Shown here piece by piece: positions 25,349 to 41,134 of a DNA stretch of 64,000 nucleotides. The notes beneath the pieces are model-generated. The model did no database searches. It saw only the letters and a list, made by a program, of their open reading frames with translations, and was not told the origin of the DNA. How positions within the stretch are numbered: the stretch's first letter is position 1; every line of letters begins with the position of its first letter. This stretch comes from a virus: the UHGV virus genome UHGV-0060643, one strand, 5' to 3'. The translations under genes and the position numbers were made by a program.

Positions 25349-25912
25349 TTAAGCGCCAGGAACAATTCCAGAAGAGATATACGTCAAACCGTCAAGTTCG
25401 GTAACTTTAATCAGCTTCGAAATATCCTTACCGTCAGATGGCAGTTCAGTTAAGTACACTTCCAACTGACCTGTCCAAGCCAAAGATCTCCCGTTCATGA
25501 TAATGATGGTTTTATCTCTGCTGTCTGGTGCAGCTGTTGGGTTCTCAACTTCGTCATCCGTAATCTGCAAATTGTACTTAGTGCGAAAAAGCTGTAGTAC
25601 CTCAGATACCGTAGCCGCATTAACACCCGCAACAGAAACTACAAAGTCACCTAACAGGTGCTCTAAATCCAACCGACGATAAATAACGTCAATTTTACCA
25701 AATGTTTTCTGCTCGATGATACCCTGGACGCTAAGTTGAGTATTTAATCGCGTAAATTGAGTTTCTGGTGTTTCTACCGCAGGAATATGTGACGGCGTGC
25801 CGAAATTCAATTTATCGATTGTAATACCTTTCTCTACCAAACCTGGATTCTTTTTTACTAATAACTCATAAACCAGTTGTTTTCCTGATTTACCTAATAG
25901 CGTATTAGCCAT
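25349..25912 (-). CDS. hypothetical protein (virion module candidate)
   Basis: 187-aa ORF, RBS gagagga. Confidence 0.65.
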   Translation of the reverse strand: MANTLLGKSGKQLVYELLVKKNPGLVEKGITIDKLNFGTPSHIPAVETPETQFTRLNTQLSVQGIIEQKTFGKIDVIYRRLDLEHLLGDFVVSVAGVNAATVSEVLQLFRTKYNLQITDDEVENPTAAPDSRDKTIIIMNGRSLAWTGQLEVYLTELPSDGKDISKLIKVTELDGLTYISSGIVPGA

Positions 25913-25928
25913 TATTTCCTCTCAAACA

Positions 25929-28130
25929 TTAACGTGCTTGCGGCAGGAAGATGTTCGCGATCTGGCGTGCTGGGATAACATCCAGTGCCGAGTTAATAAA
26001 ACTACCCTGTGACCATGCAGATGCCCAGTTTTGTGCCCAGATGCTCGCATTAATCTTGGCACGCGCAATACCGTTAGTACGTTCGTACAACGTAGCACCA
26101 CCTAAACACGCCATAAATTCACTGAATTTGTTATCATCATCCCACACACCTGTGTCAGTAACAATGGGCATGTACATAACGCGAGTCAAATCACGAATAG
26201 TAACAGAGATGTCGCAAGACAGTGGGACGGAATCACCTGGCCGCCAACCTAAACCACCCACACCGAACTGTAACGACATCGACGTCACCATCGCGTTACG
26301 GAAAGAAAAACGTCCTTGTGAATAACACTCTAAATAGAACGGGTGAGTAAAAGATTGTTTACCTGTAGCCAGAGGACACACTGCTGCAATCCAAAACGAA
26401 AGCGGAACTAACAAATCCTGGAAAATATCCAGGTCGTTACCCGACCAACAACGTAAAGGAATGGTTAAAGTAATGTCGTCTCCTGATGCGTCAGAACTAT
26501 CCCAGACTTCTGGGAAGTCTATCACCGAGGAGTTGTACAACGACATTATCCCTGTCAAATGTAGGGTGTCTGCAACGCCTCGCATCGCTGACTTAATACC
26601 GGAAACTAAAGCATCGACCGCACTAAAACCGGTTTGTCCACCCGACAGGTTAACCTCCAACGAACGCGCTTTTGCTGTTGCGGAGTTTACCATCCCGGAA
26701 ATCTCAGGTTCTTTCGTGGAGTTAGAGAACGAACGCGAAACGGTGTCTTTACCGTCAATACGCCAAGTAACCCATTGTGAACCGTTCTTAATCTCTGACA
26801 GGACGTTATCGCCAACATCCGCAACCATATCGGTAAACTCTTTAAAGAACGTTCCTACTTTGGATTCATCTTTACCTTTGTTCATCCAATCTTGAACTTC
26901 GACAATATCGCCCTCAGTAAGATCCTCCGGGTTCTTTTCATCCAACGTAGAGTTCAACTGCTTAGCAGCTGCCGCACGTTTCTCCATAGCCTGACGGGTT
27001 TTTTCCTGCTCTGACTGGATTTGTGCAGCTTGCTCTTGCAGTTCATTAGCGGTACCACCCACCACCAGGCTATTACTCATCTGTCCGATGAGTTCGTCTT
27101 CCTGGCTGTCAATATCCTGTATCGGAGAAGCGTAACCCCCCTTTTCACTTCTGGCAACTTTTTCCAAGTTGTATAGTGAGACTTCGAACTGTTCTGCTTT
27201 TAGACGTACGTTATCGCTGTAAGTAGCATTATAGTAAAACGCACGTAAGCGACTGGCAAACAATTCTTCATCGTCACCGGATTCTACACGAATCGCGTCG
27301 ATAGTTTTAGCCTGGTAGTTCGCCAAGGTCTGGTAACGGTTAATCATTCGGTAAATGTCAAACTCACCGTTCGCTTTCCAGACTTCGGGCAAAGATTCAT
27401 ACCACTCTTTACGATCTTTATGGTAACTATTTTCTTTACTTTCGGTATCGTAACCCAACGCAAAAGTCCCTAACACACCCGTTGGTACTAAACGACGATA
27501 AATTAGCTGGGTGTTCAGGATGTTTTGCACTGCACGTAAGTACAGATGCATTGTGGGCTTAACGTAATAGTATCTTGACGTTTCTTTATTCAGCGCTGCC
27601 GAAAGAATCCTCGGTGTAATCAGAATCACCGCGAATGCCACAGTACCCACCGTCGCCCAAATAGCAGCCGCACCGATATACGATGCCGCTGTTCGAATAA
27701 TTCCTGGATAGTCACCTGTACGTGCAAGATACGCCAGGTTAGAGTCGTACATGTTCGCAAAGAACGAAGCCATACCCAGATACTTCGGTTTACCGAAACG
27801 GCAATGAACGTAAAATGAGTTCTGGCTGATACTTTCGTAGTAATACGTCCCTAAGCGATAAGACCCTGCGGCTGAGGAATTATAAAGGGACTCGGTACCG
27901 CTCTTAGTCGCGTCGGGTTGTGCAAACGCGCCTGTTGAGGAAGGGTCTGCAAAAAGTGTAAACTGGGGCGGTGTGTTAATCGCTTTACTACCACCAACTG
28001 TGGTGTCTTCAAACGACATCATACCACCGGAATAGCGGCGCAAGGCCAGGAAACGTTCATCTCGGCCATCGACTGCGCCATTAAATAGGTTTTTGACCCA
28101 GCTTGAGTCGTTAACTGTTCTAGCGTCCAC
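25929..28130 (-). CDS. large hypothetical protein with internal hydrophobic helix; candidate virion/ejection protein
   Basis: 733-aa ORF; start is GTG (rc of cac at 28128-28130) preceded by gaggtag RBS; TM-like IGAAAIWATVGTVAFAVILI; immediately downstream of giant SLT gene. Confidence 0.7.
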   Translation of the reverse strand: MDARTVNDSSWVKNLFNGAVDGRDERFLALRRYSGGMMSFEDTTVGGSKAINTPPQFTLFADPSSTGAFAQPDATKSGTESLYNSSAAGSYRLGTYYYESISQNSFYVHCRFGKPKYLGMASFFANMYDSNLAYLARTGDYPGIIRTAASYIGAAAIWATVGTVAFAVILITPRILSAALNKETSRYYYVKPTMHLYLRAVQNILNTQLIYRRLVPTGVLGTFALGYDTESKENSYHKDRKEWYESLPEVWKANGEFDIYRMINRYQTLANYQAKTIDAIRVESGDDEELFASRLRAFYYNATYSDNVRLKAEQFEVSLYNLEKVARSEKGGYASPIQDIDSQEDELIGQMSNSLVVGGTANELQEQAAQIQSEQEKTRQAMEKRAAAAKQLNSTLDEKNPEDLTEGDIVEVQDWMNKGKDESKVGTFFKEFTDMVADVGDNVLSEIKNGSQWVTWRIDGKDTVSRSFSNSTKEPEISGMVNSATAKARSLEVNLSGGQTGFSAVDALVSGIKSAMRGVADTLHLTGIMSLYNSSVIDFPEVWDSSDASGDDITLTIPLRCWSGNDLDIFQDLLVPLSFWIAAVCPLATGKQSFTHPFYLECYSQGRFSFRNAMVTSMSLQFGVGGLGWRPGDSVPLSCDISVTIRDLTRVMYMPIVTDTGVWDDDNKFSEFMACLGGATLYERTNGIARAKINASIWAQNWASAWSQGSFINSALDVIPARQIANIFLPQAR

Positions 28131-28175
28131 TTTCTACCTCTTTAAGATGGGGGTGGTTTCCCACCCCCGTATGTA

Positions 28176-31100
28176 TTAACCTGCACGTCTAACGTTAAGC
28201 TGTCGTGCTGGCTGTTCAACGGACATTTGTCGTGATGCTGAACCTGCTGGTGCCGTAGGTTTAGACGATACAGTGTTTTGAACCGGCTGCGGGCGTTGTT
28301 TAAGGATCGTGACAATCTCTTTGAGATAGCCCGCCGATTCTTTCGCAACAGCCAACTGCTGAACACTAATCGGATCACCATTACTGAGTGTAGGCCCGTT
28401 TTGTGCATCAGAAGTAACCGCAGGTGCCGGTTTACTCGTCGCTGCTACGCGCTGCATAGCACCTTCTTTCACCTTCTCGACATCTTCTTCAGGCAACCCT
28501 TCGTTTCTGGCTCCGGCTGCAACGGTCTCCCCAATCATAGAGGCGTCGCCGCCTGCACTACTACCGCCAGGTGACGGTACTGCCGGACCACCACTGGTTG
28601 CGGCTTTGACGTTGTCTGCACTCATTGCACCTTTCTCTGCTAACGCATCGTCACGACGCGCCGCATTGGACGCAGGCAAGTTATCCGTCGCTCCAGAAAT
28701 TGATGGATCGTTAGCTGCCCCTGCTGCTACCGCCGGAGAGGAGGCAACCGCAGGCGTTAGCCCTTTCACCATGTCTTTCGTTGAAGCTGGGTTAGCCGCA
28801 ATTTCGTTTGTCGCCACAGCACCCATACGGCGGTTCAGTTCATTAATAACTTCGCCAACAGTACGAATACGAACAATCTGTTTGCCACGCATTTCGTAGA
28901 AGACCCCCTTATTACCTCTAAGGATTTGAGGAGTAATGCCTTCTGCTTTGTCGGCTGGCATGTTCGGATTCTGACGCCACGCATTAAGGAACTTCTTACC
29001 ACCGCCTGGACCCAAGAAGTGATACAGATACGCAACAGCCGGAGGCGGTTCTACACCACCCAAGTCTTTCTGCGCCTGCATGATATTGTCACGAATAAAC
29101 TGTACCCCGAGGATGGTATTTGCCCACGGGTCATACTGGTTTACTTGCGGTATACCGTACCGACGAGAATACCCTTTCATCATTCCAGACCACGTTTTGT
29201 CAATGAACTGGAACAACCCTGCTGCTGACGCACCTGGGTTCTTGACACCGTATTTGAAATCAGATTCGGCTTTCGCCATCGCAATCGCGACCGCAGGCGG
29301 AACACCTAAGGTATTTGCGACATCCGCAATCATCGCTTTAACGCCTTCTACGTTAGGTGATTTACCATCACCCAGTTTGCTGATTGGATACTTCTCAGCC
29401 AAGGTTTTGTAATCACCTTCTTTGACGTCCCCGAGTTTAATCCCGGATTGGCCCGTAGAGAACTTCGCGTAATTGCTGATGCCCATCTCACCCACAACTT
29501 GAGTCAGATCGCCCGGTGTACCGTAAGACGACCCACCGTTTGGCAAGTACCCATCGTTAGACGCTGTACCCCAATCAACGACACCTTTGAAACGATCTTT
29601 GGTATCTTCGTCGGTTTGATACATTCTCGTCGCACGATCGGCTTTCTGCCACTTCGCACGTTTTCCTGCTGCGGGTGTAGAGCGCAGGGTGTTACGAACA
29701 GCCAGGTCAGGTTCTTTTGACAGTTCTTTCAGGTTGGCAAGTTCAGTAGCAACAGAACCTGCGTCAGTGTTTGCTTCCTCACCCAGCGGGTTGAATGGAA
29801 TCTCCCACACGGACTGACGAATACCGCCCTTCATGTTGTAAGCGCCACGAATCATCAACGCTAATTCGTACATGAACCCACCGGATACTTTCAATTCGGT
29901 AGGGTCTGCTTGCGGAATGTAACGTTTCAGACCAACGACGTAGGTCATATACGCCGGTAAGAAACGGTTGTAGAACCAGTTCTTACAACGCTCCTCTTTA
30001 GGACCACCTATCAGGTCAGGCGAGATAACCGCAATGGCTTCTTTCCAGTTGCCTTTATAGGTACAGTTCTTCACATCAATGTCTTTCAACACGTTCTTCT
30101 CTAACAGCGTGAAAAGATTACGCGTTGTTTGGTTGATAGTAACCGCACCGTAGGTTTTCCACCTGACCGATTCCAGGTCTTCCAAATCGCTTTTCTTCGG
30201 TAACGAATGCCAGTCAACTTGGATTTGAACCTGTTCAGTTCCGTCTTCCCAACCTTCAACCTTCGCAACTTTCTCGTTACGTTCAGCATCCGCATTCGCC
30301 AGTACCTGACTGGTTTCAGCAACGGACGCAACTTTGTGGCCTTCGACGGCATCACGCATACCCGAACGTTGTTTCCGTTTGTCGTCGGTACGCATGTTGA
30401 TTGACCGCCACACACGTTCCTGTGCTTCGACAACCTCTTCCCCTGACAAGAACTCTGCCGGTGTAAAGGTAACGAAATCCCACGCTTTAGAGAACCAACC
30501 CTGGTTAACTTTACGCGGGTCAGTCAACGAACGGAATTCCACAGAATCTTTACCCATCTTCATTTTGTTGTAGAGGGTAATCATATCCGCTTTCGACACT
30601 TTCTTCGGATCACCGACATCTGCCAAAGCGATATCGTTATCCATAGACTTCAGTGCTGAAATCCAACGGAGGTAAATCGGTGCGAAACGTTGTAGCATAA
30701 ACGCAGTAAATGCTAACATCTCACCACGTTCTTCTAAGTTTACACCGAACCCTTCTGCGAGTTTCTTCACGTCCTCGGAAGACAAGCCACGTAATTGTGC
30801 TTCACCCCCTTCGGTATACGAGACGTAAGGTTTCAAAGCGTCTTCTAAATAACGGGCTTTCATACCGTCTTCAGAAGACCACTGGTCGTAGTCACGGAAA
30901 CCGTATTGTGCCAGACGCATATAGTCGAGGTACTGTGCTTTCACACGGGTAGCGCATTTATACGCCCAATAACCCAGACCGGCGGCAGTCGCACCGATCA
31001 CAATTGCGGGCCATCCCACCGCTGCTACCACCGTAGACGCAGCCGAGGCTACCGCAGTCACCGCCGGAACCGCTAAACGCTGGACGGCAAACTTACCAAC

Positions 31101-34100
31101 GTTCCACACTGCTTTACCAAGGAACCCGGTAGGTTTAAAAATACCCCACTTCGCAACTTTACCCAGTATGGAACCCACCGTACCTAAGATACTCACGATT
31201 GGTCCTACTAACGGTAGCCCTTTGAGGAAGTCCATCACCCCGCCTTTACGTCCTTTCTGTTCGGCGGATTTCTTGGCTTTCTCTTCTTCCTTAGAACGTC
31301 TACGACGACGGAAGAATTGGAAGTAGTCGCGTTTTTCATCATTGGCTGCCGGTTTGTTACGTTGTCCGAATTTACTGAACATCGTACGAATCAAGCCATC
31401 TGGCGCACCAGCACGTTCCGCAGAGTCACGCATGGTGTTAAACCAGGACATTTCCTGGAGGTTAACCATCCGGTTTAAACGTTCCAGTAATGCTGAACCA
31501 ACACTCTTCGCTTTCTGCTTACCTTTGTTGATAACGCGTCCTGCGCTATCCGTTGCGGTTTCGAAATCCTCCTTCGCTGCGTTAATCACGCGTGTTGGAG
31601 AAACCTTACCACGGGCGTATAAGTGTTGACGGTAAAACTCAGCAACGTCATCGTCACGACCTGCTAAACGAGACTCCGTCCGATAACGTGTGGCAATGTC
31701 GTAGCGTGGATCGCGGAAGCTATCTACCGTTTCGCCAAAGCGTCCACGGAAACGGTCAAACCACCCTTTACCCGCAGCACCCCAACGTGACAGTCTATCG
31801 CCAACACCATGACGGAAACGCGAGAACCGGTCACGTTGTCTGCCTCGCCAATCCCGGAAATTCTGGAAATAGTCTTTAAACCCATCGCGGAAATCCTTAA
31901 CACGGTTAAGCATCCCTTTGATAGATTTCGAGCCAACGTTTTTCTCCAGTTGCTCCGTCCAGGATTCATCTTCAGGCTCACCGTCTAAACGACGGTTAAG
32001 GAGTTTATAGATACGAATCAGGATATGGTTGGTCTTACGGCCATTCGACCAGGAGAACATGCTGAAACCGCCGCCAGAACCACCGTCCTTACGATTCTGC
32101 CACCACCGGGTAAGTGGGTTGTCAGTCGCTAACTCTTTGAATTTCTCAAAGCCGCGTTTTGCATTGTTCCACAAACGAGCAGGCATTCCGGTTACGCGAG
32201 AAATCATGCTTTGTAAACGCGTTTTCTCACTACCCTCGGGAATCTCGTTAAGCCACTCACGTGCTTTCTCGAAGATAGACGCTGCTCTTGGTGAGATTAG
32301 ACCAATCAGTTTCTTCGGTAAGTTAACAGCTTTGTTTACCGCTGTACCTGCTTTACCAGAGATATACTGGAACAGGGCCTGGAGCTTACCACCTTTATAG
32401 AAGCGCAGTTTACCCGCAGCCGCTAAGTCCGCCGCTGCGAGAATCAAGTTCCCGGCTTCGTCAACAATATCACGACCCAGCTTAATGTCGTCTAACGAGC
32501 GGAGTTGTACCAACTTGTTGGTTTTAGGGTCAGCCTGATAATACTCACCTGCCTCTAAACGGCTACCTTGTAAAACAACATTGCCTTTCTCGTCGTAGAT
32601 GTCTCGAACACCAAGAACGCCTTTCCCGAACGCTACTGCTGAATTCCAGCCTGTGGACAGCGTACCAGTAACTAAACCTTTCAGTCGTTCAAAAACACCT
32701 GGACCGTCAGAAGACCCACCGGAGAACTTCCCACGGATAAAACTGCCCAGTGACTGTAAACGCCCTTTTCCTCTCAGGAACATGTTCTTCGCAAAACGAC
32801 CAGCACCCGTACCGGTGTCCCAAAGTACGCCCGCCCAACGACGGAACAGCCCACTTTCACCAAGCACAATGCGCTTACGTTTGCGTTTGTTACCGGTACT
32901 ACCCGCGTCTTCAGATGCGTCACCCTCACCGTCACGACCACCACCTAAGCTGGCCAGCAGGATGCCTTCCTCATCCATGTTCTTAACATGTTTCAGAATT
33001 TCCTGCACGGTGTTGGATTCGGATTTGTTACGGATAGCATCAACGATTCTATCAAACTGTTGCTCTAAACCCGCATTAGTGTCAGGCCGTTCGCTTAACA
33101 GTTCAACAAAGTTGGTGGATTTTTCACCGTAGAGGACAGCAGCAAGTTGTCGTGCCGACAGCCCACGACCACCACGTCCACCTTTACCTTTAACGGTGTC
33201 AATAGTCGACTCGTCACCGGTTACGGAAGCGTCTACCCCTAAACGACGTAAGTAGTCACCTAGCGCAGAACCGTTTTTCAGTTTGCGCTGGATTTCTTGT
33301 TCACGCGTTAACGAACGACCGGAACGGGTTTTCCCCATGGCCAGGTCGTTGTATAGCGTATACGGATCGTTAATGTCTTTATCTACATCAAACCGATCGT
33401 TCTTCGCATCGTACTTAAAGATACCTGCGTCACGTAACGCATTCTCACCGTAGATAATTGAAGCTTCGTCTACCGTGTTTTGACGTGCACGTATCGTTGA
33501 CTGAATGGCTGAAATCTTACTAGCAATCTCATTGCTAAGTTCGTGATGACCGCCTGTCAGTTCTGAAGACCGTGCTTCTAAGACCGCCTGAATCGCTTCT
33601 ACCGCGTTTGCATTCATGTAACGATACATGTGCATCGGGTCTTTCAGCAGACTGCCTACGTCGAATGCCTTACCTTCAGACGCACGGGATTCGATATAGT
33701 CCGCCAGCGCCTGGCGAGTTTTCGAATCCAGGGTTTTGTCTTTGTCGATAAAGTCAACGGTTTCGTTAATGTACTGCTGTAAACGCTTCCGCTGTTCATC
33801 GTTCGCAACCGCTTTACGGACACGGTTACCGATGACTTTACGGTCAATCATCCCACGCGTGGTTAAATCGTACACCTGGTCGTGGTGTTCGCCGTACCCG
33901 CGACGAATAGATTTGTTAATCTCCGTCAGCAAAGTCGGGATGACTTCCGTGATGCTAAGATACGCTTTACGGTCGAACTTCGCGGCAGCGGATAACGCTT
34001 CTGCTGAACGTTCTTCTAAAGCTAATCCCTCACGACGCAGCGGTGTCACTAACCCCAACTCGTGCATTAAACGGAAGACGGTGGCCAGTGGGCCGTCTAT

Positions 34101-35309
34101 CTCACCAGCAATCGCCGAGTTAGAGATAGAAGATAAGTTACCGAACCCGTAGCGTGCCAACTGAAGCCGTTTCATGACTTCAGGGTTCTTTTCTAACTCA
34201 CTGCGTGTCCAGTTCTGTAAACGTTCTACTTGCGGTTGTAAGAATCGTTTTGCTAACCAACCACCGGCAAACCCTGCGACTTTACCTCGGCTATTCGTAC
34301 GACGACGTTCTGGCGACAGTGTAGAACTGTCATCCATGCCAAAGTCGTCTTCCTGACCCATTGACAGAACTTGTTCTAATATCCCGCGTCCGTCGCTGAA
34401 GATATTCGAAATCTTTTTCTTCGCGTTCTCACGAATCTGATCAATAAAGTTATCCGCGTAACGCAAGGGGTTCATCCATTCGGCAGCTTTACGTTTTACG
34501 TTAGCCCAACGAACTTCAGAGAATTCCTCTTTTGCGTAGTCCGGCAACGCGGTGTTTTTAACAATCGCTTCAAGTGCCGGGGTGTTACGGCTAAACTCAT
34601 CCTGTTTAAGTTTAGCAATATCTTGCAACGCGAATAACGTACGGTATTGCAGTTCTAACTGTTTACGCTGAACGTTAAGCATCACCCCACGACTTAAACT
34701 GGTCGTCAGGTTAACGTCTTTCGCAATACCGATAACCGTCTGGAACAGCGCATCAGACTTCATGTCCTTGATGGTGTCACGAAGACGGTCTTCTACCATT
34801 CCTTCCTGAACTTCACGTTGTTGTTCAGGTGTTTGTGGGGTACCTGCAAAAACAGTGTCTAACTCACGATCCATTAATGCTTGTTTAGGATCGTAATTCC
34901 CGTAATCGTACTGGTCGCTTTTCGCCCATTTATCGATCTTACGGGTTACGCTGTCAGGCAAATACCGTTTTAGGGTTGGGCCTAATTGACGAGCTTGTGC
35001 CTTCACCACGCGGGAGGTCTTTTCAATCTCGTCTTTCGTATGGGCCAGAATGTCTTGACCTGCGGCTTTGACGTTCTTATAACCTTCATAAGCGTCAGAC
35101 GCCGGTTTTGGCATTCCTTTTAAAATGACCTGATCACGTTTATTTTCGGGCCAGATAGTCGACAATGCCGACTTACGGGCAGCACGAAATGTGTCCATGA
35201 CCGGGTTACGCGATTGGTCTTGTTGACGAGGGGGCTCATCAAAATCGTCCCAGTCGTCCATGTTATCAAGATCGATTTCATCGAAATCGTCTTTACCTTT
35301 TTTAGCCAT
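28176..35309 (-). CDS. giant virion protein (2377 aa) with lytic transglycosylase (SLT) domain near C-terminus and cluster of TM helices; phiKZ gp181-like
   Basis: SLT signature AIAMAKAESDFKYGVKNPGASAAGLFQFIDKTWSGM encoded at ~28950-29420; hydrophobic cluster encoded ~30950-31250; phiKZ gp181 recalled as a similar-sized protein with C-terminal transglycosylase. Confidence 0.85.
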   Translation of the reverse strand: MAKKGKDDFDEIDLDNMDDWDDFDEPPRQQDQSRNPVMDTFRAARKSALSTIWPENKRDQVILKGMPKPASDAYEGYKNVKAAGQDILAHTKDEIEKTSRVVKAQARQLGPTLKRYLPDSVTRKIDKWAKSDQYDYGNYDPKQALMDRELDTVFAGTPQTPEQQREVQEGMVEDRLRDTIKDMKSDALFQTVIGIAKDVNLTTSLSRGVMLNVQRKQLELQYRTLFALQDIAKLKQDEFSRNTPALEAIVKNTALPDYAKEEFSEVRWANVKRKAAEWMNPLRYADNFIDQIRENAKKKISNIFSDGRGILEQVLSMGQEDDFGMDDSSTLSPERRRTNSRGKVAGFAGGWLAKRFLQPQVERLQNWTRSELEKNPEVMKRLQLARYGFGNLSSISNSAIAGEIDGPLATVFRLMHELGLVTPLRREGLALEERSAEALSAAAKFDRKAYLSITEVIPTLLTEINKSIRRGYGEHHDQVYDLTTRGMIDRKVIGNRVRKAVANDEQRKRLQQYINETVDFIDKDKTLDSKTRQALADYIESRASEGKAFDVGSLLKDPMHMYRYMNANAVEAIQAVLEARSSELTGGHHELSNEIASKISAIQSTIRARQNTVDEASIIYGENALRDAGIFKYDAKNDRFDVDKDINDPYTLYNDLAMGKTRSGRSLTREQEIQRKLKNGSALGDYLRRLGVDASVTGDESTIDTVKGKGGRGGRGLSARQLAAVLYGEKSTNFVELLSERPDTNAGLEQQFDRIVDAIRNKSESNTVQEILKHVKNMDEEGILLASLGGGRDGEGDASEDAGSTGNKRKRKRIVLGESGLFRRWAGVLWDTGTGAGRFAKNMFLRGKGRLQSLGSFIRGKFSGGSSDGPGVFERLKGLVTGTLSTGWNSAVAFGKGVLGVRDIYDEKGNVVLQGSRLEAGEYYQADPKTNKLVQLRSLDDIKLGRDIVDEAGNLILAAADLAAAGKLRFYKGGKLQALFQYISGKAGTAVNKAVNLPKKLIGLISPRAASIFEKAREWLNEIPEGSEKTRLQSMISRVTGMPARLWNNAKRGFEKFKELATDNPLTRWWQNRKDGGSGGGFSMFSWSNGRKTNHILIRIYKLLNRRLDGEPEDESWTEQLEKNVGSKSIKGMLNRVKDFRDGFKDYFQNFRDWRGRQRDRFSRFRHGVGDRLSRWGAAGKGWFDRFRGRFGETVDSFRDPRYDIATRYRTESRLAGRDDDVAEFYRQHLYARGKVSPTRVINAAKEDFETATDSAGRVINKGKQKAKSVGSALLERLNRMVNLQEMSWFNTMRDSAERAGAPDGLIRTMFSKFGQRNKPAANDEKRDYFQFFRRRRRSKEEEKAKKSAEQKGRKGGVMDFLKGLPLVGPIVSILGTVGSILGKVAKWGIFKPTGFLGKAVWNVGKFAVQRLAVPAVTAVASAASTVVAAVGWPAIVIGATAAGLGYWAYKCATRVKAQYLDYMRLAQYGFRDYDQWSSEDGMKARYLEDALKPYVSYTEGGEAQLRGLSSEDVKKLAEGFGVNLEERGEMLAFTAFMLQRFAPIYLRWISALKSMDNDIALADVGDPKKVSKADMITLYNKMKMGKDSVEFRSLTDPRKVNQGWFSKAWDFVTFTPAEFLSGEEVVEAQERVWRSINMRTDDKRKQRSGMRDAVEGHKVASVAETSQVLANADAERNEKVAKVEGWEDGTEQVQIQVDWHSLPKKSDLEDLESVRWKTYGAVTINQTTRNLFTLLEKNVLKDIDVKNCTYKGNWKEAIAVISPDLIGGPKEERCKNWFYNRFLPAYMTYVVGLKRYIPQADPTELKVSGGFMYELALMIRGAYNMKGGIRQSVWEIPFNPLGEEANTDAGSVATELANLKELSKEPDLAVRNTLRSTPAAGKRAKWQKADRATRMYQTDEDTKDRFKGVVDWGTASNDGYLPNGGSSYGTPGDLTQVVGEMGISNYAKFSTGQSGIKLGDVKEGDYKTLAEKYPISKLGDGKSPNVEGVKAMIADVANTLGVPPAVAIAMAKAESDFKYGVKNPGASAAGLFQFIDKTWSGMMKGYSRRYGIPQVNQYDPWANTILGVQFIRDNIMQAQKDLGGVEPPPAVAYLYHFLGPGGGKKFLNAWRQNPNMPADKAEGITPQILRGNKGVFYEMRGKQIVRIRTVGEVINELNRRMGAVATNEIAANPASTKDMVKGLTPAVASSPAVAAGAANDPSISGATDNLPASNAARRDDALAEKGAMSADNVKAATSGGPAVPSPGGSSAGGDASMIGETVAAGARNEGLPEEDVEKVKEGAMQRVAATSKPAPAVTSDAQNGPTLSNGDPISVQQLAVAKESAGYLKEIVTILKQRPQPVQNTVSSKPTAPAGSASRQMSVEQPARQLNVRRAG

Positions 35310-35338
35310 AACGTTTAATCCGTATCAGGAGATTTAGC

Positions 35339-36964
35339 GTGAATAAACTTAATTGGGTTGACTTTTATCTGCTCAATGTAAACAAGTCTCTTGTGTCGCG
35401 ATTACGACCCGTCACGACCACAGATACTTTTCAAGGGTTGACAAAAAACTTTCACCCTGAAGGGTTGTACTCCACGGAGATATTCGGTCTTACGGGAAGT
35501 GAAGCCCGAGACTCAACGTTTTCTTACATTGATATTAAATTAGATATCATTTCGCCGACGGTGTGTTTGGCGTTATTCCAACTAAAACAACTCTACGAAG
35601 AAATTTGTTCTGGAAAACGCTACGCAACCTGGAGCGAAAAAGAAAAAGATTTTGAACCGGCTTTGCCTGGCGACGCTGGCGCAGATACCGGTTTTAACTT
35701 TTTCCTTAGTCACTACAACGACTTAAAACCCGGACGTAACGAATCGTTACAACGTGACGAAACGGTGGATTTCTTCGAGAAGTTCCGTCCCGTGAGTCTT
35801 AGCCGCTATGTTCTCGTATTACCCGCGGGTTTACGTGATTTGGTGGTTAGACAAGACGGTAGGGAACAGGAAGAGGAAATCGGTGGGTTATATCGTCGTT
35901 TGATTTCTTTGGCCAGGGCGATTCCTGACCGTGCTACACGGGTTGAATTAACGAACCCTGTACGATGGAAACTCCAACAAACCTTTAACGAAATCTGGAT
36001 GTACTTCTTTAACATCCAGGACGGTAAAGGAGGTTTCCAACGTCGTAAAGTGACGTCGCGTAAACTGATGAACGGGACACGTAACGTGTTGTCCTCATTC
36101 TCCACAGGCTCTAAATGCATGGGACGTGAGGATGCGATTCGACCGACCGACACCAAAATTGGTTTGTATCAGGGTCTGAAAGCGTTGCTACCTGTTGCGC
36201 AATACCAGATACGTGAACGTTACCTCGGTAACATTCGTGCTGGCGATGGCAACCTTTATGGCGTGAACACCAAAACGCTTAAACGTGAGTTCTTGGAGGT
36301 TGGGGGTCGTGTTTACGACACCTTTACCACGGACGATGGCATCGAAACATTAATTAACCGGATGGAAGCTCGCGAGCTTCGTCATCAACCGTTAATGATT
36401 AACGATACCCATTATGTCGCACTGGTCTACCAAGACAACAAACATTTTAAGGTGTTCTACGATATCGACGAACTGCCTAAAACGTTTGACCGTAAAAACG
36501 TCCACGGAATGACCCTGGTAGAATTACTCTATTTATCGGGTTACGAACTGTGGAACAATTATTTCGGTTTCGTTACACGTTATCCCGTCACCGGTCGAGG
36601 CTCGACGTACTCATCGACCATAAGATTGGAGACCACCACGTCATCTTTATACCTAAAAGAACTGGAAGATGACTGGGAGACTGAAAAGCCACACGGAGCT
36701 ATCAGTTATCCTGACAGGTCGGTTCCAACCTTTGTCGAGTCGATGGCACCGCACCCGTCACGATTGGGTGGCTTAGGGGGTGACTACGATGGTGACACCG
36801 GTTCACTTAACGCGCCTATGTCGCAAGAAGCACTCGAGGAAAACCGTAACTGGATACACTCGAAGAACTACTGGTTCGATTCAGACGGGAATTTCAAAAT
36901 CAATCCTGTCAACAACGTGATTAAACGTGCGACGCAAGCGTTATTAAAGAATCCAAAAGGCTAA
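35339..36964 (+). CDS. multisubunit RNA polymerase beta-prime-like subunit, N-terminal half (virion RNAP candidate)
   Basis: GTG start with RBS caggaga; HPEGLYSTEIFGL and IISPTV resemble beta-prime N-terminal blocks; C-terminal DYDGDTGSLNAPMSQEALEE matches catalytic [23 protein letters not shown]; no Zn-finger cysteines. Confidence 0.6.
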   Translation: MNKLNWVDFYLLNVNKSLVSRLRPVTTTDTFQGLTKNFHPEGLYSTEIFGLTGSEARDSTFSYIDIKLDIISPTVCLALFQLKQLYEEICSGKRYATWSEKEKDFEPALPGDAGADTGFNFFLSHYNDLKPGRNESLQRDETVDFFEKFRPVSLSRYVLVLPAGLRDLVVRQDGREQEEEIGGLYRRLISLARAIPDRATRVELTNPVRWKLQQTFNEIWMYFFNIQDGKGGFQRRKVTSRKLMNGTRNVLSSFSTGSKCMGREDAIRPTDTKIGLYQGLKALLPVAQYQIRERYLGNIRAGDGNLYGVNTKTLKREFLEVGGRVYDTFTTDDGIETLINRMEARELRHQPLMINDTHYVALVYQDNKHFKVFYDIDELPKTFDRKNVHGMTLVELLYLSGYELWNNYFGFVTRYPVTGRGSTYSSTIRLETTTSSLYLKELEDDWETEKPHGAISYPDRSVPTFVESMAPHPSRLGGLGGDYDGDTGSLNAPMSQEALEENRNWIHSKNYWFDSDGNFKINPVNNVIKRATQALLKNPKG

Positions 36965-36967
36965 TCA

Positions 36968-39900
36968 ATGCTGCTCATTAAACAGTTTAACCAACGCTTC
37001 TCTGTGCGTAAAACAGACGAGTTTGGTAATCCGAGGATTATCCCGCTCGAGAAGCTCCAGATACCACGAGGCTCCATACTGCACGTCGTGGATCTCGATC
37101 AGGTGGTCTTAGCGCCACCTGCTACGCTGGAAATCATCCAGCCGTTGGAAAAACCTGCACAAATTCGCCACCACTTTAAACTTCCCGAAGAAGGGATCAG
37201 TGGGCATCCACGTAACAAACCTGTGCAGGGGCAAGAACGTGCTATCTTTGCGTATCATCGCGCTAACCGTCCAATTCGTCGTCTGACTTCAGATGACCTG
37301 ATTCGTAAAGACTTAAAAGTTCTCCTTATTGAGAACTATACACCGATGTTATCGCACTACTATTATCCAGACACTCAACTAGCCTGGTACGACAGACTGC
37401 GTAACATCCAGCTGTTAATGACTAACCAGTTCAAATACGACACGCAAGAATACATGCGTCAGAACTACTTCGTGATTGAGCTGGGGTCAACGTTACCGTC
37501 TTTCCAGAAGTTCCAAACGACGTATAACGATCGTGTTAAAAGCAAGATTGAAAAGTTCCAGGATTTTAACCTGCTGTGGTTATTGGAACTGTTCGCTTGG
37601 GCGTACGGTAAACAGTCCGATTCTCTGTTTGCGGGAATGGACTTAACGCAACTGTCTCGAATGAACTTCATCTTCACCCACAACGGCGGCTTTACGTCGA
37701 TGAACATGGGTGTCGTGGAGAAGATGCGTAAATCGTCCGGTGGCCGTTTAAGTGACGACCAGATGGCCAGGATGTTCTATCGTACGTTAGTGCGTGTAAT
37801 GACTCAAGCACCGTCTAATGCTTACGAAGCTGAATTCCTGACACCGGAAGGTGATGAACGTATCTTTGTTAAGGACATCGAAGAGGATACCGTTGACGTC
37901 GTTGACGATACAGACGTTGTTAACGACGCTGTGGTTGAATCGGATAACGCTTTCGATGAAAAAGAAGACCTCGTTATTGAGGAGCCGAAAGAAGACGTTA
38001 AGCCGACGACTATCGTTATCGAAAAAACGATTGCTCACGATGACATTATCAAACAGGAAGCGCAGAAACTGGCTGAGGCGGGCCGCTTAAGCTCCAAAGC
38101 GTATCAATTCCTGTCTGATTCGACCAAACGTTTCGTTCAGTTACCAAACCCGTACAACCCGAAAGAGACTTACGGTGAAGCATTAACCATTCACGAAAAA
38201 GACATTGCCGTGAAAGCGGAACCGAAGAAAGTCCAGCGACTGGTTACGGATGAAGGTTGGGCAGAAAACGTCACCGACCAAATGGTGAAACAATACAACC
38301 AGACCATGATGAGTAAAGACGTGCTGGCAGCAGTCGCCAGCTCGCAGCGTCTTGGTTTAGCTATTCACAACCACACGATCGAGAAAGAGGTTTCCGTTAC
38401 GGGAACTATCGAACACCACACCCTGCGTGTTCAACCGATTGGTGGTGAACCGACGACAGTGCGTTTCTCTATCCCTGGTTTAACCGAAGACGGTACCTGG
38501 GTAGCAAACGGTGTTGAATACACCATGCGTCGTCAGCGTGTAGACGTTCCGATTCGTAAGGTCGCCCCAGACACCGTAGCGTTAACTACCGCTTACGGTA
38601 AAAACTTCGTACGTCGTAGTGACAAAGTCGCAAACGACTACGGCCGTTGGTTAACGAACGCGATTATCACGCGTGCCGTAGACCCGACCAACACGGAGAT
38701 CACCGACGCACGTCTCGCGAACGTTTTCGATCCTACAGAGAAACTTCCTCGTCAGTACACGGAGATTGCACGCCGTATCGCCAGCTTCAATGCAGGCGGG
38801 TATATGTGGAACTTCGATTATAAAGAAGCGGTTAACTTCTTTAATGACGAACAGCTTACTGACGCAAACAACGTTGAGATGTTGCCGGTTGCGAAACGTC
38901 CGCGCAGTGAAGTTATTGTGGTGATGGATACCAAGTCCATGCTCTATACCGTTAAGGGTAAAGAGTGTACACCACTGGGTACCATCTCGGAAGTGCTTGG
39001 CTTCAGTAGCCAGAAAGCGCCAAGAGAAATGACCGAGCTTTCACTGATGGGCAAATCGCTCTCACTGGGCTTCATCTTCTCGTTCTATTTAGGTCTGCAA
39101 GGGATGCTTAAACATTTCGGTATTCAGTACGAAATCGTCCCTGTTGGCCAACGTGTAGATAAGAGCACGTACGATTCTATTATTCGTCTCCAGGACAGTA
39201 AGTTCCTGGTAACGTGTGATAACGATCAGCAACGAATGATTCTACACGGTCTGGATAAGTACCTGAAACACCTGGTAGCTTATACCGAGTCCGAAGTCGA
39301 CCGCGAAGACATTTACCTGAACTTAATACGTGATGCAGATGGGCTAACTCCACGCTACATCAACGAGCTGAAACAAATGCGGGCCGCGTTTGTTGATGAC
39401 ATGCACGCACGTATCCTCAGGAAAATGGGTGAACCGGAAACCTTTATCGGGCTATTGGAACGTTCTAACGAACTGTTACAAACCGACCACTCTTTACCGG
39501 AGATTAACGGTGATGAAATGATGTTCTTAGGGAACCAACGTATTTCCTACCACATCTACACTGCGATGGTCAGGGCGATGCGTAACTACAACAACGCACC
39601 GAACAGTAACCGTAAGTTCGAGCTTACTCAGGACATGATTTGGGGCGCAATTAACTCCGACCCGTCTGTTCTGTTAGCGCCGGGTGCTAACCCTATCCAG
39701 TCGATTAAAGAGAAAGACGTTATCACCATGGGTGGTACGGGTGGCCGTAACCGTAAAACAATGGTTTATCACACGCGTGAGTTCCAACCGAGTGACCTGG
39801 GTATTGTATCCGGTAACACGGTGGATAACGGTGACGTAGGTATTACTGCTTTCGCCACCAACAACCCGCGTTTTGATACCGTTGACGGCACAACCTATAA

Positions 39901-41134
39901 ACGGGATGAAAAGAAACTGAAGCCGAGCGACACTCTGTCATTTATTGACGGTCTCGTGCCGGATACCCTGATGGACGACGCTAAACGTCAAAACTTCGTT
40001 GGGATTCAGTTAGGTTCTGCCACCAGTTGCAACGGCGCTACCACTACCCCTTATCGTACCGAACAGGAGAAATTTGTCGCTCACCGTACATCGGTGAAAC
40101 ACGCACGCGTTATTGATAAAGCAGGTAAAATCACCGGTCTGTCTAAAGACCATATCGAAATTACGTACGAAGATGGAAGTAAAGAAGCCTTTCCTCTAGG
40201 GCGCTGGTTCGGCCCCCACGAAGGTACCTTCTATCCGCACACCCTGGTGACTCGCTGGAAAGCCGGTGACAAACTCCCGGCCGGGGCAGTCATCACCTAT
40301 AACGAGCAACACTTTGAACCCGATATCTACGACCCTACTCAGGTTTCCTGGAAAAACGGGGTGCTGGCTACCGTCGCTCTAATCGAAGCTGAAGAAGTAA
40401 TCGAAGACTCCAATGCTATTTCTGAACGGTTCGCGAAGAAAATGGTTGGGCAGGTTACTAAGCTGAAAGAAGTGGTGATTAACAGCAACCAGATGCTCCT
40501 GGAAATCGTTAACGAAGGGGAACACGTTGACGTCGACACAATCCTATGCACATTTACTGACGACCTTACGGGGGATATGAGTACCTTTAGTAAGGAAGCA
40601 GCACAAACGTTGCAAAGTTTAAGTTCGTACGCGCCTCGTGCTGGGGTTCGTGGTATCGTGGATAAAATCGAAGTCGTATATCACGGTGAAACCGAAGACA
40701 TGACGCCTTCACTGGCAGAACTGGTACGTAAATACGATCGCATTCGTCGTAAAGCAGCATTGGCTGTTAATCGTGGCGATCCGGTATCAGGGAGTGTTAA
40801 TGGGGATTACCGTGTAGAGGGTGTACCGTTAGCCTTTAACTCGCTTTGTGTTCGATTCTTTATTACGCACGAAGTGGAAATGGCCGCAGCGGATAAGATG
40901 GTTATTGCTAACCAGCTGAAAACCACTGTACAAGAAGTGATGTACGGGGAAAACAAAACAGAAGATGGCGATGACATTGACATTTTGTTCGGTCGTGATT
41001 CTGTCGACGCACGTATCGTAGGTTCTATCCAACGAATCGGTACCGCAAATGCTGTGGGTGAACAAGCAGGGATTCTTATCGGTCGTATCCTCGACGGCGA
41101 GTCCGTGCCTGAGTTACCAGCGACACTTAAATAA
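36968..41134 (+). CDS. multisubunit RNA polymerase beta-like subunit (divergent, with large insertions)
   Basis: N-terminus RFSVRKTDEFGN resembles beta RIRKDFGK; LTEDGTWVANGVEYTM resembles beta DNGTFVINGTERV; catalytic C-terminal beta motifs not recognised, so possibly only part of beta. Confidence 0.5.
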   Translation: MLLIKQFNQRFSVRKTDEFGNPRIIPLEKLQIPRGSILHVVDLDQVVLAPPATLEIIQPLEKPAQIRHHFKLPEEGISGHPRNKPVQGQERAIFAYHRANRPIRRLTSDDLIRKDLKVLLIENYTPMLSHYYYPDTQLAWYDRLRNIQLLMTNQFKYDTQEYMRQNYFVIELGSTLPSFQKFQTTYNDRVKSKIEKFQDFNLLWLLELFAWAYGKQSDSLFAGMDLTQLSRMNFIFTHNGGFTSMNMGVVEKMRKSSGGRLSDDQMARMFYRTLVRVMTQAPSNAYEAEFLTPEGDERIFVKDIEEDTVDVVDDTDVVNDAVVESDNAFDEKEDLVIEEPKEDVKPTTIVIEKTIAHDDIIKQEAQKLAEAGRLSSKAYQFLSDSTKRFVQLPNPYNPKETYGEALTIHEKDIAVKAEPKKVQRLVTDEGWAENVTDQMVKQYNQTMMSKDVLAAVASSQRLGLAIHNHTIEKEVSVTGTIEHHTLRVQPIGGEPTTVRFSIPGLTEDGTWVANGVEYTMRRQRVDVPIRKVAPDTVALTTAYGKNFVRRSDKVANDYGRWLTNAIITRAVDPTNTEITDARLANVFDPTEKLPRQYTEIARRIASFNAGGYMWNFDYKEAVNFFNDEQLTDANNVEMLPVAKRPRSEVIVVMDTKSMLYTVKGKECTPLGTISEVLGFSSQKAPREMTELSLMGKSLSLGFIFSFYLGLQGMLKHFGIQYEIVPVGQRVDKSTYDSIIRLQDSKFLVTCDNDQQRMILHGLDKYLKHLVAYTESEVDREDIYLNLIRDADGLTPRYINELKQMRAAFVDDMHARILRKMGEPETFIGLLERSNELLQTDHSLPEINGDEMMFLGNQRISYHIYTAMVRAMRNYNNAPNSNRKFELTQDMIWGAINSDPSVLLAPGANPIQSIKEKDVITMGGTGGRNRKTMVYHTREFQPSDLGIVSGNTVDNGDVGITAFATNNPRFDTVDGTTYKRDEKKLKPSDTLSFIDGLVPDTLMDDAKRQNFVGIQLGSATSCNGATTTPYRTEQEKFVAHRTSVKHARVIDKAGKITGLSKDHIEITYEDGSKEAFPLGRWFGPHEGTFYPHTLVTRWKAGDKLPAGAVITYNEQHFEPDIYDPTQVSWKNGVLATVALIEAEEVIEDSNAISERFAKKMVGQVTKLKEVVINSNQMLLEIVNEGEHVDVDTILCTFTDDLTGDMSTFSKEAAQTLQSLSSYAPRAGVRGIVDKIEVVYHGETEDMTPSLAELVRKYDRIRRKAALAVNRGDPVSGSVNGDYRVEGVPLAFNSLCVRFFITHEVEMAAADKMVIANQLKTTVQEVMYGENKTEDGDDIDILFGRDSVDARIVGSIQRIGTANAVGEQAGILIGRILDGESVPELPATLK

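Follow-up and report, generated by a model that had tools for sequence, protein, structure and literature searches.

What does a phage do with a protein of 2377 residues that carries a peptidoglycan-cleaving domain near its C-terminus? This question is raised by the virus genome UHGV-0060643, of which a stretch of 64,000 nucleotides (the window) was analyzed. On its minus strand, an open reading frame (ORF) at positions 28176..35309 starts with ATG and encodes a giant protein with a calculated mass of 263 kDa and pI of 9.4. The original prediction, made from the sequence alone, was that of a membrane-spanning ejection or tape-measure-like protein that delivers a peptidoglycan-cleaving domain. 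Our analysis supports this proposal overall, with membrane spanning and a ruler function being the parts that we infer. The gene probably encodes a giant protein inside the tail of a jumbo myophage related to phiKZ (SPN3US-type); this protein would reside in the tail tube, be expelled upon infection and bring a lysin to the cell wall.

A tblastn search with the giant protein against 50,697 phage records gave matches in 242 of them. The top matches (approximately 61% identity over 100% of the length) were in Erwinia phages Asesino, Stratton and phiEaH2 and Salmonella phages SPAsTU and SPN3US, and the PHROG 3201 profile covered the protein over its full length (E=0). The matched SPN3US protein has 2372 amino acids (aa) and a computed mass of 259.1 kDa; because this equals the mass reported for gp239, the "tail tape measure protein" of this phage (PMC10052503), we identified it as gp239. 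In a BLASTP comparison with phiKZ gp181, aa 12-550 (E 4e-16) and aa 1450-2210 (E 5e-37) were aligned, and residues 26-576 of gp181 are homologous to the helical N-terminal region of the giant protein. The comparison with gp181 suggested in the original prediction has therefore revealed a true homolog over N-terminal and C-terminal regions. The two proteins share the homologous N-terminal region, the stretch from the middle domain up to and including the SLT domain with its catalytic Glu, the gene order and, in phiKZ, an essential role; they differ in that identity is only 21-24%, that gp181 has no segment above 1.25 on the Kyte-Doolittle scale and that its N-terminus is different. Judged by its sequence, the giant protein is a genuine member of the already recognized gp239/gp181 family (PHROG 3201) of phiKZ-related jumbo phages.

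SPN3US gp239 and the near-identical proteins of Asesino, Stratton, phiEaH2 and SPAsTU have the same layout, with a hydrophobic cluster (aa 1346-1439), an SLT domain and the C-terminal motif, and the same neighboring genes. Still, about 39% of residues differ from gp239 and there is no nucleotide-level match between the two. When the gene was compared with phage records at the nucleotide level, only one 191-bp match was obtained, so that it has no close cultured relative, and identity is only ~74% for parts of the flanking genome. Because nucleotide matching of the gene is near nil and that of the flanks this low, we conclude that the window comes from an undescribed SPN3US-type jumbo phage. 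The closest sequence was a 98%-identical protein encoded by a 111-kb contig of a public sequencing run. When aa 1340-1900 were searched against 1.84 billion representative proteins, 506 matches were found, and the best 150 of these were mostly giants of ~2100-2700 aa aligned at a comparable position. The lengths of 227 full-length relatives (20-30% identity) have a median of 2364 aa, and their middle half spans 2254-2453 aa. We collected 117 homologs and aligned 81 of them for conservation counts; the best-conserved stretches in this alignment are aa 1-300, 450-500, 900-950, 1451-1550 and 2001-2100.

Where the protein is located in the virion can be judged from its orthologs. SPN3US gp239, which is 61% identical, was detected in virions by mass spectrometry, was absent from tailless gp64-mutant particles and depleted in a tube mutant, and was called the tape measure (PMC5105663, PMC10052503). 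Presence in the virion, on which the original prediction depended, is thus established for this ortholog. A review describes phiKZ gp181 as a 246-kDa virion peptidoglycan hydrolase, once proposed to be a cell-puncturing needle (PMC5380687, citing Briers 2008). In a phiKZ transposon screen, no insertions were recovered in orf181 or orf182, and orf181 was called the likely tape measure. By analogy with these orthologs, in which it is established, the gp239/gp181 family is an essential virion tail component.

These data bear on a head-packaged ejection protein of the T7 gp16 type, which the capsid would store until its ejection, when it would build a channel across the envelope. T7 gp16 is a podophage head-core protein that also carries an SLT domain, and no similarity to it was detected outside this domain, which is N-terminal in T7 gp16 and C-terminal here. 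Moreover, gp239 is missing from tailless head particles of SPN3US and is grouped with the tail proteins, and the gene adjoins a baseplate gene. We regard storage in the head as highly improbable.

Solved structures cover only the SLT domain, the enzymatic part of the protein. A Pfam scan with E up to 0.1 returned SLT alone (PF01464, aa 1997-2082, 32.7 bits against a cut-off of 21.3), the domain that had been read from the motif E-S...GLFQFI, and neither a tape-measure nor a fiber/receptor-binding family. An AlphaFold2 model of the C-terminal 1058 residues had a mean predicted local distance difference test score (pLDDT) of 71 and two confident domains, and the SLT domain showed a goose-lysozyme-like fold. 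A profile of the family searched against PDB sequences found SLT proteins only, none of which matched outside the SLT domain. Of the 81 aligned relatives, 77 have E2015 and S2016, and 77 have Q2034 and F2035; G2031 is invariant (81/81) and Y2094 occurs in 80. The four relatives that lack the catalytic Glu carry a GH19 domain in place of SLT, and the residue is thus conserved in the alignment, as the original prediction required. The closest solved relative of the SLT domain is phiKZ gp144, and E2015-S2016 and Y2094 align with positions E115-S116 and 197 of that protein, which we take to be its catalytic Glu115 and Tyr197. On this sequence evidence, the giant protein carries a C-terminal lytic transglycosylase with an intact predicted active site. 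Fragments of phiKZ gp181 have measured muralytic activity, as cited in the review (Briers 2008, in PMC5380687), and by analogy the SLT module is a candidate lysin.

The wall-degrading module has been exchanged at the same position in other relatives as well, which have GH19 (PF00182), in one case a phage lysozyme (PF00959) and in several cases VanY together with SLT; some of the latter also contain a Peptidase_S74 chaperone domain. Goslar gp204 gave a weak GH19 match only (18.3 bits, below the cut-off). Exchange of the enzyme at a fixed position fits a design for cargo delivery. Behind the enzyme, the last 64 residues can be aligned down to phiKZ-type members, with a helix predicted at aa 2314-2338 with moderate to low confidence, and this C-terminal end may serve as the docking end of the protein.

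Most GenBank records and PHROG 3201 suggest another function, that of a tail fiber or receptor-binding protein. This assignment consists of annotation labels ("tail fiber protein"). AlphaFold2 predicted a largely alpha-helical protein that has a lysozyme-like domain and lacks a fiber-type fold, no fiber or receptor-binding family was found in the Pfam scan above, phiKZ fibers are assigned to gp131-like proteins (PMC13250141), and the specialist papers on SPN3US and phiKZ name a tape measure. We find no support for the database label "tail fiber protein", and the fiber reading is almost certainly wrong.

An older proposal for phiKZ gp181 was a needle below the baseplate that punctures the cell in the manner of the T4 gp5 spike with its lysozyme; in the review, gp181 is tabulated as a "needle-like cell-puncturing device, putative trimer" (PMC5380687, citing Briers 2008 and Fokine 2008). 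Its muralytic domain is real. However, in the 2026 phiKZ atlas (PMC13250141), in which 40 proteins were modelled and gp181 is never mentioned, the spike complex consists of gp164, gp163.1 and the hub protein gp101, with the spacer gp182 and gp174 around it, and spike, tip, hub, spacer, pin and tube initiator are all assigned to proteins other than gp181. In the Goslar structure, all hub, spike and inner-baseplate density was likewise given to other proteins, with gp13 as the spike. In addition, neither an OB-fold nor a beta-helix was predicted in the giant protein. Since both structures assign spike and hub to others, the needle idea has been superseded, and we consider it very unlikely.

The interior of the tube would be spacious enough for such a protein. 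The lumen of the phiKZ tail tube is ~68 A wide according to the atlas, and by our calculation from this value 3-6 whole copies would fill only 15-30% of it. Treated as equivalent spheres, the 48-kDa and 27-kDa domains would measure 48 A and 40 A, respectively, and fit this lumen.

The original prediction further placed a cluster of hydrophobic helices at ~30950-31250. Its location was confirmed, with two to three segments, although these are only marginally hydrophobic and were modelled with little regular secondary structure. Of the 93 residues, 16 are Ala, 15 Val and 14 Gly; Kyte-Doolittle values of 19-residue segments peak at 1.8 and 1.89, and the cluster ends in the conserved sequence AVGWP...GY.AYK.ATR, which leads into the middle domain. 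Among the 227 relatives, the most hydrophobic 19-residue segment is found at 0.58-0.62 of the protein length (middle half) and exceeds 1.6 in 90%, and Goslar gp204 has a clear Gly-rich hydrophobic stretch. The cluster is a real, position-conserved feature across most of the family.

Three observations count against a membrane-spanning role. A simple sum on the Hessa scale gave +2.9 kcal/mol at best, the pLDDT of the cluster in the AlphaFold2 model was below 50, and the equivalent stretch of phiKZ gp181 (residues ~1290-1355) reaches only 1.17 on the Kyte-Doolittle scale, with a protein-wide maximum of 1.25. It is possible that phiKZ, the model phage, is atypical of the family in this regard. 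Given its Ala/Val/Gly-rich composition, the positive Hessa sum, the low pLDDT and the weakness of the feature in gp181, the cluster is not a classical or confident transmembrane segment. We infer from its sequence that it is a marginally hydrophobic, conditionally membrane-active element that might insert into a membrane. Such marginal hydrophobicity would suit a protein that has to stay soluble in the cytoplasm of the producer cell during its synthesis and assembly.

Several basic and aromatic elements precede the cluster. The motifs claimed for the protein (the acidic N-terminus, GKGGRGGRG, KRKRKR and the Arg/Phe repeats, together with the SLT signature) were all found in their places (Table 1). 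The Arg/Phe block contains 15 Arg, 10 Gly, 10 Phe and 9 Asp among 70 residues, and units of the form DR[FLMW]x[RG][FWR] occur three times against 0.036 expected from shuffling of the local 115 residues, for a pattern that was defined post hoc. It is located in the least conserved and most gap-rich region of the protein, is missing in the phiKZ-type members examined, and is richer here (27 Arg, Phe and Trp in 60 aa) than in 60%-identical relatives (19-23). AlphaFold2 modelled the block as one long low-confidence helix, whose helical hydrophobic moment was above average and not significant against shuffles (P=0.076). At the level of sequence, the block is a real short repeat and a clade-specific low-complexity feature. 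Self-BLAST of the giant protein revealed no long internal repeats. A polybasic stretch with the conserved motif EKRDYFQFFRR just before it then leads to the hydrophobic cluster. Apolipoprotein A-I chains matched the variable helical stretch before the cluster (positions 1164-1299 of the family profile) with E ~0.1, which is below significance, and one family member has a precomputed apolipoprotein match (PF01442). These matches, which are not significant, are a hint at lipid-binding amphipathic helices.

The N-terminal 1200 residues are largely helical in the predicted structure. The motif at the very N-terminus alternates acidic and hydrophobic residues and can be aligned in most members shown, down to ~25% identity; the first 40 aa have a median net charge of -7 among the 227 relatives. 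The N-terminus of phiKZ gp181 (residues 1-45) differs and is less acidic than in most of the family. Goslar gp204 seems to have been annotated with a start (VKLRFNIINAEG...) that is ~31 codons too far upstream, and its acidic motif begins just after an internal Met (MVDKTRVEGDDNWD). Within the helical region that follows, aa 200-300, with NTALPDYAKEEF, form the best-conserved block, as seen from the conservation profile and invariant columns. Long helices were also predicted over much of aa 720-1200, with low to moderate confidence. The sole confidently predicted part of these 1200 residues is a mixed alpha/beta domain (pLDDT ~80-90 at aa 480-660), and a Foldseek search of the N-terminal 1200-aa model against PDB identified no structural relative (best E 2.4). 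The Gly/Arg run and the Lys/Arg patch, which lie where insertions and deletions are frequent, keep their composition in closer relatives only and are absent from the phiKZ-type members shown. A beta-rich repeat module located further downstream is conserved into these members. The SPN3US-type clade, including this protein, lacks an extra unit of ~75 aa ("DIY.xGE...FKLVD") that most others have after aa ~1030 (window 32100-32400). For the acidic N-terminus, the Gly/Arg run, the Lys/Arg patch, the Arg/Phe block and the middle domain, the Pfam scan found no curated family at E up to 0.1.

We propose that the tube lumen, which is unusually wide, contains several copies of the protein, with the conserved C-terminal end at the baseplate spacer and hub, beside the product of the neighboring gene, and with the long, mostly helical N-terminal 1300 residues running up the tube and setting or stabilizing its length. 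Upon sheath contraction, the protein would be expelled ahead of the DNA, C-terminus first. The SLT domain would then cut glycan strands and let the wide tube through the cell wall; the phiKZ spike gp164, unlike T4 gp5, is not described as lysozyme-bearing. Finally, the basic/aromatic stretch and the hydrophobic cluster might attach to the inner membrane, or insert into it, and contribute to opening a path for the DNA.

The long predicted helices, the narrow length range over the 227 relatives and the conserved C-terminal end are ruler-like traits. Classical tape measures span ~1.5 A of tube per residue. Several findings speak against the proposed role, in particular against the measuring part. 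The phiKZ tube has 43 layers of 37.73 A with a gp181 of 2237 aa, and the Goslar tube has 46 layers of 39.16 A with a gp204 of 2252 aa as annotated; in these two structures, the only ones compared, tube length differs by 11% and protein length by less than 1%. Both correspond to ~0.73-0.80 A of tube per residue, about half the classical value, and arithmetic with residues per tube layer gave no clean relation between the two phages. No curated tape-measure sequence family was matched in the Pfam scan or in the PDB profile search, and no tail-assembly chaperone pair was found upstream of the gene, where the neighbor is a divergent RNA polymerase beta-like gene. A frameshifted chaperone pair upstream of the tape measure (lambda G/GT and many myophages) is common and not universal, and T4 does without it. 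The lumen location itself is suggested by absence from the maps and not by observed density, and the functional evidence comes from orthologs, none of it from this phage. The ruler function is a putative one, suggested by the traits above.

The same findings favor a variant in which the protein serves inside the tail as a lysin and membrane-opening factor, carried as cargo in the lumen or hub, while tube length is set by something else. Tube and protein length would then be expected to be unscaled between phiKZ and Goslar, as they are, and the low tube length per residue, the more than 1000 C-terminal residues made of globular or hydrophobic modules and the lack of a tape-measure Pfam match would need no further explanation. 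On the other hand, protein length varies little in a family that is very diverse, the N-terminal part is long and helical, no other tape-measure candidate was found mentioned in the phiKZ and Goslar structure papers, and the specialist literature assigns the tape-measure role to this protein. We keep this non-measuring alternative because of the weak points of the ruler role and because the lumen position is deduced from map absence, and consider it unlikely, if deserving of attention. The lysin-bearing tape measure inside the tail tube is the reading that we prefer.

Several known systems resemble parts of this arrangement. In T4, the tube ruler gp29 and the tip lysozyme gp5 are separate proteins, and the two functions are apparently combined in one polypeptide here. 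T4 gp29 has ~590 aa and neither enzyme nor hydrophobic modules, and the T4 lysozyme belongs to the spike and not to the tape measure. The phiKZ and Goslar hubs are otherwise T4-like, and no homology to T4 gp29 or gp5 was detected. A functional parallel in design is Pb2 of phage T5, a tape measure with a membrane-active region and a C-terminal muralytic domain. It is reportedly (from work of 2008 and later T5 structures) a tail-internal ruler that leaves the tail during infection, enters the envelope and degrades peptidoglycan. The Pb2 enzyme is a peptidase and not a transglycosylase. This is a functional analogy only, as no sequence or fold similarity was detected and Pb2 is a siphophage protein about half the size; the review lists it as a virion-associated muralytic tail protein (PMC5380687). 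The solved phiKZ protein gp144 (PDB 3BKH; 9XPS chain S), an endolysin and neck wedge of 260 aa, shares only the catalytic domain with the giant protein. It has an N-terminal peptidoglycan-binding domain. At the neck, six copies of gp144 act as wedges that join the whisker collar to the sheath (PMC13250141); with an SLT domain in the giant protein, these phages would therefore carry related transglycosylases at both tail ends.

The neighboring genes are those expected from the family. The divergent upstream ORFs at 35339-36964 and 36968-41134 match RNA polymerase beta PHROGs (virion RNA polymerase beta-like), and the 733-aa product of the downstream gene is homologous to phiKZ gp182 (BLASTP 8e-38). 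The order of virion RNA polymerase genes, giant gene and gp182-like gene is common to SPN3US, phiKZ, Goslar and the window. In phiKZ, gp182 forms a hexameric spacer ring between tube initiator and hub (PMC13250141), and SPN3US gp238 is essential and tail-associated. Further downstream, an ORF of 187 aa (25349-25912, minus strand) matches virion-structural-protein PHROGs, and its counterpart on the near-identical metagenomic contig is recorded as DUF7941 (PF25613). The giant gene and the RNA polymerase beta-like gene are divergent, and their start codons are 29 bp apart (35310-35338), which leaves scant space for two promoters. The giant gene, its segments and the gp182-like gene are listed in Table 1.

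Table 1. Position of the giant gene, its protein segments and the downstream gene in the window
Feature	Residues (aa)	Position	Strand	Remarks
Giant gene	1-2377	28176..35309	-	SPN3US gp239 ortholog, phiKZ gp181 homolog; probably tail-internal, lysin-bearing putative tape measure
Acidic/hydrophobic N-terminal motif DDFDEIDLDNMDDWDDFDE	7-25	35235..35291	-	located in sequence, aligned in family
Long alpha-helix region	36-420	34050..35204	-	AlphaFold2, low to moderate confidence
Mixed alpha/beta domain	447-690	33240..33971	-	AlphaFold2
Low-complexity stretch		32871..33188	-	Gly/Arg run and KRKRKR patch, then Gly-rich basic stretch; pLDDT <50
GKGGRGGRG	708-716	33162-33188	-	located in sequence
KRKRKR	808-813	32871-32888	-	located in sequence
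Beta-rich module, "DIYDxxGNVVL...GxYY" repeat units	900-970	32400..32612	-	AlphaFold2 strands, pLDDT ~74
Arg/Phe/Gly/Asp-rich block	1131-1200	31710..31919	-	three short DR-Phi-x-R-Phi units
DRFSRFRHG / DRLSRWG / DRFRGRFG	1160-1192	31734-31832	-	located in sequence
Polybasic stretch RRRRRSKEEEKAKKSAEQKGRKGG	1334-1357	31239..31310	-	conserved motif just before
Ala/Val/Gly-rich hydrophobic cluster	1357-1449	30963..31241	-	two to three segments; Kyte-Doolittle
Conserved alpha-rich middle domain	1449-1869	29703..30965	-	48 kDa; no detectable structural or sequence relative outside family
SLT lytic transglycosylase domain (goose-lysozyme-like)	1939-2189	28743..29495	-	predicted catalytic E2015-S2016, GLFQFI 2031-2036, Y2094
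AESDF	2014-2018	29256-29270	-	SLT signature, includes E2015-S2016
GLFQFI	2031-2036	29202-29219	-	SLT signature
Ala/Ser/Pro/Gly-rich low-complexity linker	2190-2313	28371..28742	-	mostly low pLDDT, poorly conserved
C-terminal helix and terminal motif	2314-2377	28179..28370	-	QQLAVAKES..LKEI.. then ..QPxxxLNVxR; candidate docking end
Downstream gene	733 aa	25929..28130	-	phiKZ gp182 homolog; positional counterpart of SPN3US gp238

With this assignment, a gene mostly labelled "tail fiber protein" in databases receives its correct functional name, and the family gains a member, diverged to 61% identity, that belongs to an undescribed SPN3US-type phage. The analysis also yields a domain map for the family, comprising the acidic N-terminus, which is conserved for the most part, a hydrophobic cluster at a fixed relative position, the 48-kDa middle domain without relatives, an exchangeable wall-degrading module and the conserved C-terminal end. 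This map is missing from the 2026 phiKZ and Goslar virion structures because the protein is modelled in neither. It offers handles on how a wide tube crosses the cell wall and the inner membrane, and on how the EPI vesicle (EPI, early phage infection) forms. The remaining interest lies in the structure of the family, its position in the virion and a possible link to inner-membrane passage or the EPI vesicle.

According to a review, cryo-tomography reportedly revealed the inner tube attached to the EPI vesicle (PMC13282480). It is conceivable, if rather improbable, that the tube tip is fixed to the inner membrane by the module of aa ~1130-1869, which consists of the basic/aromatic stretch, the hydrophobic cluster and the middle domain of orphan fold. 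If true, this would make the giant "tape measure" the first structural factor of the EPI vesicle that is encoded by a phage. Our literature search found no paper linking gp181 or gp239 to the EPI vesicle, and the Juk defense system was reported to sense gp241, not gp181.

A tRNA scan and an Rfam scan of the window were empty, and antisense ORFs inside the gene (e.g., 32599-33132, plus strand) were taken as by-products of the long ORF. The G+C content of the giant gene is 0.50-0.51 (positions 28001-34000), above the 0.41-0.47 of window positions 1-26000. The GC skew of the giant gene is strongly negative, which is consistent with coding on the minus strand.

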